DNA from: an uncultured bacterium | Lineage (GTDB): Bacteria > Patescibacteriota > Minisyncoccia > UBA9983 | Reading direction: 5' to 3' | Length of the DNA: 19,233 nucleotides | Assembly (NCBI GenBank): GCA_913009575.1 | Contig: CAJVWH010000013.1 | Span: forward strand, 1-19,233 | Part shown: one piece after another, positions 17,819 to 18,852 of the stretch | Numbering within the stretch: position 1 is the first letter of the stretch | Layout of the letters: each line of letters begins with the position of its first letter | Notes under the pieces: model-generated | Told to the model about the DNA's origin: nothing | Seen by the model: the letters and a program-made list of their open reading frames with translations, nothing else | Databases searched by the model: none | Made by a program: the position numbers and the translations under genes

Positions 17819-17866
17819 GTTTTTATTAAAAATTATTTAATTACTTTTTTATGCGACCTTACCTAT

Positions 17867-17895
17867 AGTTTACCCCCCCCCGACACTTTTTGCAA
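17867..17895 (-). promoter_or_regulatory. Candidate promoter of the 425-aa gene with a G9 homopolymer in the spacer
   Basis: The minus strand reads TTGCAA (17895-17890), then the spacer AAAGTGTCGGGGGGGGG (exactly 17 nt), then TAAACT (17872-17867), ~48 nt upstream of the ATG at 17818. Confidence 0.4.
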
Positions 17896-18147
17896 CAGCA
17901 ATAATTTTATTAATTCTTCAAATTCAATCTGGTGGACCCGAGAGGATTCGGTCAGGAGTCGGTAAAAAATATAGTCATACAATGCTTCGCATTGCATTCC
18001 TTATTTTGGTGGGATGTATTAGACTTTGGTCGAAACTATTTCAACAACTAGCTCACGCGCCGAGCGCGTGGTAATTCGCAACAATGTCGTACGCATCGAG
18101 TACGGTGGTAGTGCTCCACACCACGGCTCCGCTATGCTCCGCCGTCC

Positions 18148-18237
18148 GCAAAACAGAAAATTTTTCTTTGCGATTTTTTCGTTTTTTTCTGCCCCCCCAT
18201 TTTTTAAAGAGAAAGGAAAAGAAAATTTCTGTTTTGC
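18148..18237. other. Long imperfect hairpin with pyrimidine-rich 5' arm, purine-rich 3' arm and C7 apex
   Basis: GCAAAACAGAAA (18148-18159) pairs perfectly with TTTCTGTTTTGC (18226-18237). TTTTCTTT (18162-18169) pairs with AAAGAAAA (18218-18225). Further T:A and T:G pairing is possible toward the apex, which contains CCCCCCC (18192-18198). Confidence 0.6.
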
Positions 18238-18290
18238 TCATCTGCTCGTAAACTCGCAGATTTGGTGTTCACGACAATGAAAAAAGGATT

Positions 18291-18708
18291 CGTCGTCTTT
18301 CTGTTATCCAAGTGTTGTGCAAGTGATAGAGTTTTTAAACAGCACCCTCGGCATCCGCCTCGGGCTATTTCCGCTAGGGCTACGAGCGCCTAGATGCCTT
18401 GGTGCGTGCATTGTTTGCTTCGCAAACGCACGCCTCTGTTTGGGGGGAGGAAGGAATCCTCCCCCCAGCTTCGGGACTCCTCCTCGCAGTAGTTTTTGGA
18501 GTTTACGGCTCCCTCGGATTTTCATTTTCTTTTAATGTCAGTGACTTCGTTTTATGTGCCTTCGGAGTCCGCCCTCGCACAACCCCCCTCCTCATTTTCA
18601 AGACAAACTTTGTGGTGTCGCTTTCGCTACGGAGTTTTGTGAGAAAGTGAATGACGGCGCTCGCCCGATAGCCCTAACGCCCTAGCGGAAATAGCCCGAA
18701 CGACGACG
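18291..18708. ncRNA. Candidate large structured RNA domain (unclassified, strand undetermined) closed by nested long-range helices
   Basis: Three nested pairings are visible. CGTCGTC (18291-18297) pairs with GACGACG (18702-18708). TCGGGCTATTTCCGCTAGGGC (18360-18380) pairs with GCCCTAGCGGAAATAGCCCGA (18679-18699), a perfect 21 bp. CGAGCGCC (18383-18390) pairs with GGCGCTCG (18656-18663). The core holds strong local hairpins at 18404-18433 (GCGTGC/GCACGC stacked on GTTTGC-TTC-GCAAAC) and 18442-18466 (GGGGGGAGGA-AGGAA-TCCTCCCCCC), plus GGACTCC (18474-18480) pairing with GGAGTCC (18564-18570). There is no credible ORF. Confidence 0.45.
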
Positions 18709-18799
18709 CTGTTTGTTTGTGCTTGCCCCGCCCGCCCGTGCGCGCACAAATCCGAATTTGAGGGTAAAAAAGGGGAATTCGGCTCCCTTTGCAAAGTCC

Positions 18800-18830
18800 A
18801 AACGCTCCAAATGGTGTATTTGGAGCGTTT
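18800..18830. other. Perfect 13-bp hairpin downstream of the minus-strand wHTH gene
   Basis: AAACGCTCCAAAT (18800-18812) pairs with ATTTGGAGCGTTT (18818-18830) around loop GGTGT. It has no adjacent U-tract on either strand. On the minus strand a T6 run follows ~30 nt later, after a weak second stem (18765-18790). Confidence 0.5.
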
Positions 18831-18852
18831 AGTATAGGAAAGTGTGGTTCCA

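Follow-up and report, generated by a model that had tools for sequence, protein, structure and literature searches.

What occupies about 1 kb of DNA without a credible gene in the otherwise compact genome of an uncultured patescibacterium? The question is raised by positions 17819-18852 of the window, i.e. the whole stretch of 19,233 nucleotides (nt) analysed here, where two minus-strand genes are separated by a G+C-enriched and hairpin-dense sequence. An earlier sequence-only reading saw in it one or more structured non-coding RNAs, or else a decayed or non-autonomous element, and its author could relate it to no familiar family. Homologues, covariation and an empty Rfam search all supported the RNA part of this proposal. 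With a probability of roughly 0.72, we regard the segment from about 18025 to 18790 (possibly to a hairpin at 18800-18830) as a free-standing gene for a structured non-coding RNA of about 0.8 kb, belonging to an uncurated family that is widespread in Patescibacteria (or Candidate Phyla Radiation, CPR). The proposal had to be narrowed in other respects: instead of a loose set of hairpins or several RNAs, 18025-18830 forms a single co-linear conserved unit of about 800 nt, and the first ~200 nt of the kilobase (17819-18015) belong to other elements. The notion of a decayed or non-autonomous element suits only the remnant of an XRE-type gene in that left part.

The gene-free stretch

The gene content of the window looks like that of a fragment of a Patescibacteria chromosome. 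Up to 16282, genes are tightly packed on the plus strand and include those for a P-type ATPase, a MacAB-type ABC exporter, UppS, Ddl and a SpoU methylase. Gene orientation then switches to the minus strand, and the stretch is bounded by the gene of a 425-residue (aa) protein (16541-17818) and by a truncated winged-helix gene (18853-19233), both on that strand. The gap between them is indeed long, although the other gaps are not all as short (up to 260 nt) as had been stated: about 368 nt (14242-14609) separate two long open reading frames (ORFs). This other gap holds only an 82-aa TTG ORF and a 68-aa GTG ORF, and gave no Rfam hit at the gathering thresholds.

Within the stretch, all ORFs of at least 60 aa overlap one another on both strands, as had been noticed before. 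Its ten longest stop-free segments had no Pfam match, even at E<=1, and none of its ORFs is present as a called protein among about 15 billion sequences. In an independent ENA contig of identical sequence, the gene caller left these 881 nt without any call. The G+C fraction reaches 0.44-0.54 over 17850-18900, against 0.31-0.39 in the flanking genes; the Ddl gene (15300-16200) is as rich. The hairpins listed in the sequence-only reading were all found, as were the homopolymer runs (C9, C7, G6, C6 and C6) and the 9-mer TGCTTCGCA at two hairpin apexes (17983-17991 and 18416-18424).

Homologues and extent of the unit

Relatives were sought by two routes. By synteny, the flanking 425-aa protein was scanned against species-representative genomes and JGI metagenomes, which gave 135 loci. 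These could be aligned to the window only over the first ~100 nt of the stretch (promoter and leader of the neighbouring gene), plus over the 5' module of the unit in a few cases, and no homologue of the central domain (18291-18714) occurred among the 135. The other route took advantage of the fact that gene callers often place false ORFs on G+C-rich RNA genes; the central part was therefore translated into stop-free segments, which served as queries against protein databases. A query from a minus frame led to P0001, from a Tara Oceans contig whose DNA is 76% identical to window positions 18123-18600. A plus-frame query (phmmer, 1.84 billion cluster representatives) retrieved 11 short 'proteins' with VWGEEGILPPASG and AFGVRPRTTPLLVF in common, and the profile built from them reached 112 clusters from JGI, ENA, NCBI and Logan, none of which contains a Pfam domain. 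The synteny route under-reported the family, and the spurious ORFs recovered it.

The contigs behind eight spurious-ORF representatives were fetched for comparison at the DNA level. With window positions 17922-18852 as query, nhmmer matched ten loci (E = 3e-129 to 6e-48; loci are designated here by L numbers) over aligned lengths of 470-830 nt. The match to L140 (E = 3e-129) spans 18009-18835 and that to L147 spans 17986-18788; eight further loci were matched, and the ten come from marine, groundwater and other metagenomes. An alignment of 11 sequences was co-linear throughout, from the 5' module through the central domain to the 3' hairpins. These three parts (the 3' hairpins lying at 18716-18782) therefore constitute one conserved unit of about 800 nt. 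Several blocks are invariant (CACCCUCGGCAUUCGCCUCGGGCAUUUCCGCUAGGGCUAC; GUUUGGGGAGAGGAAGGAAUCCUCUCCCCAGCUUCGGGCUCCUCCUCGCAG; GUGCCUUCGGAGUCCGCCCUCGCACAACCCC; CCCUAGCGGAAAUGCCCGAGG; AUGUGCUUGCCCC..CCCACCC.UGCGCGCACAA), and between them lie hairpin stretches that differ completely from member to member. Such an alternation is the pattern one would expect of a functional RNA with a conserved core, not of a decaying element.

Counted in the reading frame that stays open longest, variable columns fell on the first, second and third codon positions 53, 55 and 55 times. Indels between homologues were mostly of 1-2 nt, and the ORFs called on homologues lay in different frames and on both strands. Segment 18025-18790 is non-coding, and at least ten loci of different environments conserve it as a single co-linear unit.

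A further contig, L001 from an ENA marine metagenome, is 100% identical to window positions 16423-18699 and stops exactly at the last base of the 3' arm of helix P1 (see below), which is probably an effect of the 21-bp inverted repeat on the assembly graph.

Folding and covariation

The right half of the stretch folds far better than shuffled sequences, in line with the density of hairpins described earlier. Predicted energy for 18285-18760 is -182 kcal/mol on the plus strand, against -145.5 +/- 5.7 for shuffles (z = -6.4; on the minus strand, z = -5.3). With the long stem excluded (18381-18678), z is -4.0 on the plus and -2.3 on the minus strand, and segment 17860-18290 is mildly unusual (z = -2.5). 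What stands out most is a perfect long-range inverted repeat of 21 bp (18360-18380 / 18679-18699), whose chance expectation is zero.

A model of 80 pairs in ten helices was drawn from a 9-sequence alignment of 18336-18800. Standard pairs form in 84.9% of the alignment cells. Changes on both sides were recorded in 25 of the 80 modelled pairs, compared with 11.9 +/- 2.2 in column shuffles (none of 500 reached 25) and 6-12 when the 3' partners were slid. As judged from this alignment, the comparison shows that the helices are maintained by compensatory changes. Some points weigh on the other side of the scale: the covariation set is small (9-10 distinct sequences) and includes close relatives, the shuffle control ignores phylogeny, and helices P5 and P7 are nearly invariant, so that their pairing receives no covariation support. 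It should be added that MAFFT misaligns the variable hairpins. The sequence-only reading had suggested looking for homologues, covariation, Rfam families and protein signals. Relatives turned up in many metagenomes and the helices were supported by covariation; Rfam gave nothing at gathering thresholds and only noise at E<=10, and no protein signal emerged from Pfam, called proteins or codon-position variation.

The RNA body (18025-18790), as delimited by nhmmer and the 11-sequence alignment, would be composed of a 5' domain, a central domain and 3' hairpins. It is described here on the plus strand, the favoured one. The 5' domain would consist of three hairpins. In the first (18054-18070, CACGCGC-CGA-GCGCGTG), the stem is kept in L140, L139, L147, L150 and L073 and the loop reads CGA, GAA, GGA or GGC. 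The second is a long A+U-rich hairpin (18148-18237) whose apex shows a U-run, a G/C block and another U-run; its stems are rebuilt from unrelated G+C-rich sequence in L147, L148, L143 and L142, e.g. CCCGUUUCGCC / GGCGGAAACGGG. A covariance model of this 5' hairpin (R1) found the A+U-rich versions and missed the G+C-rich ones of these four loci; its alignment mixes strands, and R1 was excluded from the counts for that reason. The third, a small hairpin (18240-18261, ATCTGC / GCAGAT), covaries, with variants CTGCTC / GAGCAG, CCGCGC / GCGCGG and CUUCCUGU / ACAGGAAG. For the A+U-rich hairpin and the small one after it, 12 of 29 pairs were compensatory across only four sequences.

The central domain, of about 340 nt, would be closed by helix P1, of 21-22 bp, and would carry P2, P3, P4, P5 and P7. 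P1 pairs 18358-18380 with 18679-18701; 95.8% of its cells are paired, three pairs changed on both sides and one base pair was inserted on both sides together. A perfect 22-bp P1 would also be a good substrate for RNase III. In P2 (GAGCGCC at 18384-18390 with GGCGCTC at 18656-18662), a 5-bp core is kept, with one C-G to G-C swap in L142. The lower stem of hairpin P3 (18404-18433), which is lengthened by an extra sub-hairpin in other members, exists in five complementary versions (GCGUGC/GCACGC, GUGUGC/GCACAC, GCUCCGC/GCGGAGC, GUCCUGC/GCAGGAC and GCGGUGC/GCACCGC). In P4, an 11-bp hairpin (18441-18467), the 5' arm is made of purines only (UGGGGGGAGGA), the loop reads AGGAA and the 3' arm consists of pyrimidines; all of its cells (100%) are paired and 5 of its 11 pairs changed on both sides. 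P5 joins GGACTCC (18474-18480) to GGAGTCC (18564-18570) and is almost invariant, with 96.5% of cells paired. A variable U-rich region amid invariant blocks (18486-18559) showed no significant fold in nine sequences, z being about -0.3 to +2 on both strands. Conserved P7 (18612-18630, GUGGUG-UCGCUUU-CGCUAC) includes two G.U pairs and forms a helix on the plus strand only; 93.8% of its cells are paired, with 17 G.U cells against a single A.C cell.

Two 3' hairpins would complete the RNA. P9 (18716-18750, TTTGTGC / GCACAAA with a C-rich loop of 21 nt) is kept in all members, with stem swaps to GUGUGU / ACACAC in L144 and GUACAC / GUGUAC in L150. P10 (18752-18782), a CCGAATT / AATTCGG hairpin followed by a conserved GCTCCCT, covaries in 5 of 7 pairs changed on both sides; its variants are CUAAAUUU / AAAUUUAG, CCCGCCCGCG / CGCGGGCGGG and CCCGCCG / CGGCGGG. 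Beyond them, a perfect 13-bp hairpin (18800-18830) is kept in L140 and L141 with a compensatory change from GCTCC / GGAGC to ACCTC / GAGGT. This candidate is likely a bidirectional terminator shared with the convergent gene.

A putative triple helix on P4

Directly after an invariant CGCACAA, the plus strand carries a pyrimidine run (18583-18593, CCCCCCUCCUC) that, at each position, complements the purine arm of P4 (18442-18451) when both are read from 5' to 3'. Arm and run change together: they read GGGGGGAGGA / CCCCCCUCCU in the window, GGGGGAGAAAA / CCCCCUCUUUU in L140, GGGGAGAGGA / CCCCUCUCCU in most members and GGGGGAAGGA / CCCCCUUCC in L142. In this parallel register, 97.2% of the cells of four variable columns match, compared with 84.6 +/- 3.1 in shuffles (0 of 500 as high) and 56-78% in slid controls, and all four columns change on both sides. 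Four more columns match in 91.7% of cells. Antiparallel pairing of 18583-18592 with P4 was rejected, since it gave 70% matches, below every shuffle, and no double changes. Among the spurious-ORF clusters, the type of P4 is likewise coupled to the type of the downstream run (odds ratio 12.5, p = 8e-5).

What defines a pyrimidine-motif major-groove triplex is a third, pyrimidine strand lying parallel to a helix's purine strand, with U.A-U and C+.G-C triples (PMC7583470). The parallel covariation of 18583-18592 with the P4 purine arm is therefore the signature of a major-groove triple helix: the third strand is parallel, with C opposite G and U opposite A, in four variant triplets. From this covariation, segment 18583-18592 is predicted to lie in the major groove of P4 as a Hoogsteen (third) strand, in about ten triples, mostly C+.G-C, and these C+.G-C and U.A-U triples would lock the central domain. 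Mismatches in L143 and in 8 of 28 window-type clusters argue against the triplex, as does its need for 6-7 protonated cytosines, which is unfavourable at neutral pH (PMC7583470).

The arrangement resembles the triplexes of MALAT1 / MEN-beta and PAN ENE, of the telomerase pseudoknot and of the SAM-II / preQ1-II riboswitches in that a pyrimidine strand lies parallel to a Watson-Crick purine strand; here, all three strands covary together. In contrast to known major-groove triplexes, the present one, a prediction from sequence, would have about ten triples, would be C+.G-C-rich and would be internal instead of at a 3' end. According to PMC7102945, known natural RNA triplexes are U.A-U-rich and the solved ones had at most six consecutive triples. 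Unlike ENE-type triplexes, the RNA does not possess the construction of a U-rich internal loop and an A-tract. An ENE-type stability element was rejected on the grounds that the strands are G/A-rich and C/U-rich, that U.A-U positions are few and that the third strand is internal. If true, it would surpass all other natural RNA triplexes in length and cytosine content and would be the first known to form a large bacterial RNA's core.

Transcribed strand and transcript ends

The RNA is probably transcribed from the plus strand. Over the modelled helices, 84.9% of cells are paired on that strand and 81.2% on the other, with 36 G.U cells against 11 A.C cells. G.U pairs also occur in the rebuilt stems of the 5' domain, and P5 has one in most members. 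Short-form relatives (see below) are co-oriented with tRNAs and with a LOOT RNA in the plus sense, and L147 has a hairpin followed by a U5 terminator in that same sense. A -10-like hexamer, TATTAG, can be tentatively assigned at 18017-18022 (plus strand), 6-12 nt before the conserved GTCGAAC that starts the unit; hexamers beginning with TA occupy the same place in L140, L139, L147, L143, L142 and L150. The plus-strand promoter would thus lie just left of 18025 and the transcript might end at hairpin 18800-18830.

The alternative is that the same conserved RNA is made from the minus strand, downstream of the winged-helix gene and in its direction, either co-transcribed with it or started just past 18800-18830, and ending at the hairpin and T-run at 17997-17960. 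We consider this less likely, yet a number of observations favour it and count against a plus-strand transcript. The winged-helix gene is the right-hand minus-strand neighbour in the window, L140, L141, L142 and L150, nearly all genes flanking long-form copies are on the minus strand, and the L150 copy sits in a 13-kb run of minus-strand genes, beside a minus-strand tRNA. The purine-rich strand of the stretch is the minus one, and structured RNAs are mostly purine-rich. Terminator-like hairpins with U-runs occur in the minus orientation in the window and in L139, where the terminator is canonical. The A.C cell of P3 on the plus strand of L147 would become G.U, and the P3 loop of L142 would read GUAA. 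Folding energies of the whole unit are equal on both strands; the choice of strand by thermodynamics failed, the plus-strand advantage of the variable region being compositional (z about 0 on both strands). Moreover, 17 of the 36 G.U cells come from one short helix, P7, a convincing -35 box was looked for before 18025 and not found, and beyond hairpin 18800-18830 there is no U-tail apart from the UUU of the stem itself. Against a minus-strand RNA stand the excess of G.U over A.C cells, the L147 terminator, the orientation of the short forms, and the fact that P7 and the G.U pairs of the rebuilt 5' hairpins form on the plus strand only. On the minus strand, furthermore, the mirror covariation would require a purine-motif (reverse-Hoogsteen) RNA triplex, evidence for which is disputed (PMC7583470).

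Short-form relatives and LOOT

The 5' module (18038-18270) has homologues in L073/L074, L106/L108, L006 and L094/L096, where it belongs to short units of about 250-300 nt. These are composed of the 5' hairpins, followed by GGCGGGGCUUCGCUUCGGCUCGC and by a hairpin similar to P9 whose loop is C- or G-rich; the central domain is missing, and each unit ends at a promoter-like TTGAC box (CTCGCTTGACNG). They lie at 1470-1760 (minus strand) of L073, 130-450 (minus) of L108, 5660-5880 (plus) of L096, and 4100-4310 (minus), 1383-1600 (plus) and 11500-11760 (minus) of L006. In this last contig the three units fall within 13 kb, and two of them immediately follow tRNA genes. The junction motif GGCNUUCGCYUCGGSC stands in the short forms at exactly the point at which P1 starts in the long one, which argues for a single family whose long and short forms differ by the central domain. 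The short forms would be paralogues, and the ~340-nt central domain would be optional.

In L073, an Rfam LOOT RNA (RF03000, 60.3 bits) was detected at 1262-1388 on the minus strand, 170 nt downstream of the short unit and on the same strand. The contig is of Patescibacteria type, and a FemAB gene lies downstream of the LOOT RNA. To our knowledge, LOOT has been known only from marine metagenomes without an assigned host; if so, its presence in L073 suggests a host lineage.

Alternative explanations

Since short units combine 5' and 3' modules without a central domain (in L073, L108 and L096, and three times in L006), the locus might be read as a mosaic, in which a small repeated intergenic module of A+U-rich and G+C-rich hairpins, serving as terminator or insulator beside promoters and tRNA genes, lies next to a separate RNA of about 400 nt (18336-18790). 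The position of two short units after tRNA genes, the promoter-like TTGAC box ending each of them and the left part of the stretch, which folds only weakly better than chance, would agree with such a mosaic. We nevertheless hold it to be improbable: wherever a long-form locus extends far enough (eight loci), the modules adjoin one another in an unchanged order, and the junction motif of the short forms at the start of P1 fits one RNA with an optional central domain.

An element acting at the DNA level, be it an invertible segment or a miniature inverted-repeat transposable element (MITE) bounded by the 21-bp repeat, or an H-DNA mirror repeat, is much less probable still. The inverted repeat is perfect and shows no wobble pair in any homologue, the independent assembly L001 ends exactly at the outer end of its right arm, and the P4 arm forms a homopyrimidine mirror repeat with 18583-18592. 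Yet in 10 of 10 homologues the inner segment is oriented alike with respect to its flanks, the flanks (CATCCGCC and ACGACGAC) are devoid of a target-site duplication, only one copy exists in the window, and invariant blocks as well as covarying helices are present in the interior itself. Phage, plasmid and viral collections gave no match for the whole region or for the 21-mer, nor did a viral scan with the 5'-module pattern. A distance of 117 nt between the mirror halves is large for H-DNA, and the break of L001 may be due to a small-k assembly graph being confused by the repeat. For a comparison of inverted or empty sites, exact look-ups of the neighbour proteins gave only short contigs ending before the region. 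A frameshifted pseudogene or a small conserved protein gene is hardly credible. Gene callers did put ORFs of 80-290 aa on the homologues, each of which has one frame nearly free of stops; however, Pfam domains were found in 0 of 112 clusters, the called ORFs disagree in frame and strand, variation is even over codon positions, indels are mostly of 1-2 nt, and the frame in the window has neither an ATG/GTG start nor a ribosome-binding site. Conservation follows base pairing and not a reading frame.

Comparison with known RNAs

The 4227 covariance models of Rfam 15 were tested on the window and on eight homologous loci. No hit reached gathering thresholds anywhere in the window. At E<=10, the best score over 17750-18950 was 23 bits, to miRNA or lncRNA models with thresholds of 45-245, and the eight homologous loci gave nothing relevant at E<=0.5. 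At these same levels, no model of GOLLD, ROOL, OLE, raiA or HEARO was matched. RNase P RNA was rejected as well: no model hit occurred in the window (E<=10) or in the homologues, and the invariant blocks contain none of the conserved regions of this RNA, neither GAGGAAAGUCC nor the ACAGAA..GGCUUA motifs. For tmRNA, ARAGORN was negative in the window and in 31 related upstream regions, permuted forms included, and there was no Rfam hit; the unit has no tRNA-like end and no tag reading frame, and ARAGORN called no tRNA in the window. LOOT (RF03000; a model of 121 positions with a threshold of 46.4 bits) did not match the window at E<=10, L073 with its 60.3 bits serving as positive control. Group I and group II introns gave no Rfam hit, and the unit is intergenic in all loci. 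Retrons, diversity-generating retroelements (DGRs), insertion sequence (IS)-guide RNAs and CRISPR-like arrays were discarded, since the neighbourhood lacks genes for reverse transcriptase, transposase or Cas proteins and tandem units are absent. No description of a large CPR RNA was found in the literature searched, the coverage of which was partial.

The family is absent from Rfam 15 and, by analogy, would belong with the large 'ornate' bacterial RNAs OLE, GOLLD, ROOL and raiA while being a member of none. It shares with them a size of 0.2-0.8 kb, an abundance of helices surrounding invariant single-stranded blocks, genes that are free-standing and a distribution that is lineage-restricted yet broad. 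GOLLD and ROOL are reportedly often found near tRNA genes, as are the short-form relatives and the L150 copy here. It differs from these four in having no match to their Rfam models, in its Patescibacteria host, in its predicted long triplex and in its winged-helix neighbour. LOOT occurs in the same kind of genome and place, and both RNAs have hairpins with long G-run / C-run stems; LOOT is only ~120 nt long, and its sequence and architecture differ. RNase P RNA, tmRNA and the large signal recognition particle (SRP) RNA likewise have a few hundred nt, a conserved core, variable peripheral helices and a long helix joining the ends of a domain, whereas the sequence of the present RNA matches none of their Rfam models, nor ARAGORN.

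Neighbouring genes and the left flank

The winged-helix gene (18853-19233, minus strand), cut by the window end, is a conserved neighbour found beside the RNA in five of seven genomic contexts. The encoded winged helix-turn-helix (wHTH) protein has an N-terminus that is disordered and rich in Pro/Glu, and its C-terminal domain is HTH_24/MarR-like (Pfam); the gene occupies the right-hand side in the window, L140, L141 (partial), L142 and L150. The window protein is 69% identical to its L140 counterpart, a full-length protein of 198 aa, which in turn is 46% identical to that of L142 and 35% to that of L150. Elsewhere, the right-hand position is taken by an ArgRS gene (L145-L147) or by an unrelated ORF (L148). 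Linkage across such divergent members suggests a functional tie, in which the protein might be a regulator or a partner of the RNA. In a groundwater contig (L142, 1009-5894), the RNA and the wHTH gene are followed by genes for a 900-aa ResIII helicase and an AAA_15/AAA_23 ATPase, a pair reminiscent of defence or mobile islands.

The 425-aa protein encoded on the other side (16541-17818, minus strand) has no Pfam domain and consists of an N-terminal soluble segment followed by a hydrophobic stretch. Its similarity to the NCBIfam SCO4651 lipoprotein family is sub-threshold (53.7 bits, cutoff 65). It is widespread in Patescibacteria, with its closest relatives in metagenome-assembled genomes labelled Patescibacteria, Minisyncoccia, Tagabacteria, Falkowbacteria and others. 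Its promoter and 5' untranslated region (17819-17921, minus strand) lie outside the RNA and are conserved upstream of homologous genes, with 75-89% identity over ~100 nt directly upstream in L059, L060, L013, L065, L061 and others. On the minus strand this segment reads TTGCAA, 17 nt including G9, TAAACT, then a leader and ATG. The same promoter/leader module (TTGCAAAAAGTGTCGGGGGGGGGTAAACTATAGGTAAGGTCG...) keeps 75-89% identity where the adjacent proteins are only 50-76% identical, and it recurs in L094/L096 (8991-9086), L002 (1651-1746 and 3327-3373), L006 (11079-11144) and L080 (1922-2012). It also precedes other genes, and its conservation is above what is expected of a plain promoter; it could be a leader RNA or a regulatory site.

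Overlapping this module, 17900-17935 (minus strand) retains the last ~8 codons (..IEFEELIK) of an XRE-type helix-turn-helix gene that is intact in relatives (L059, L060, L013 and L061; a full 68-aa protein is encoded at 1741-1945 of L059). These relatives have the small XRE-type gene, and often a tRNA gene, upstream of the promoter; the tRNA is missing in the window. L013, L059, L060 and L061 align with one another for 210-530 nt here and with the window for ~103 nt only. The window keeps only the last codons of the XRE gene, and a rearrangement or insertion boundary is therefore placed near 17935, at what appears to be the left edge of the RNA unit. At this edge, a short hairpin (17977-17997, CAATGC-TTC-GCATTG), followed by a T-run on the minus strand, looks like a terminator; it was flagged on both strands by a terminator scan, and its L139 equivalent is a perfect 23-bp hairpin.

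At ~3590-3705 of L061 (plus strand) lies a tRNA-like gene with matching acceptor ends, an encoded CCA (GGGCGAT...ATCGCCCACCA) and an aberrant, enlarged middle. It was called neither by ARAGORN nor by Rfam, and may be an intron-containing or degenerate tRNA.

Possible role and significance

On the plus strand, the gene downstream of the RNA is always convergent, and the RNA is therefore not cis-regulatory for it. Our best guess is that it acts in trans, as a structural or scaffold RNA or as the RNA of a ribonucleoprotein (RNP). As a tentative and more specific picture, on which we would not insist, it may represent a new class of large RNA specific to the ultra-small Patescibacteria, with a C+.G-C-rich lock of about ten triples, working with the winged-helix protein (as an RNP or through mutual regulation) and having shorter paralogues next to tRNA genes.

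Lineages from marine, groundwater and other environments share a conserved core of this RNA, and spurious ORFs on it populate more than 100 protein clusters; public databases list hypothetical proteins at this locus, and these spurious entries need re-annotation. In the past, bacterial RNAs of large size and conserved core have proved to be ribozymes, RNP scaffolds or, more recently, self-assembling cages. Patescibacteria make up a large share of bacterial diversity, with tiny genomes and few described RNAs. These genomes have almost no spare DNA and keep an RNA of 800 nt, which must therefore do something indispensable.

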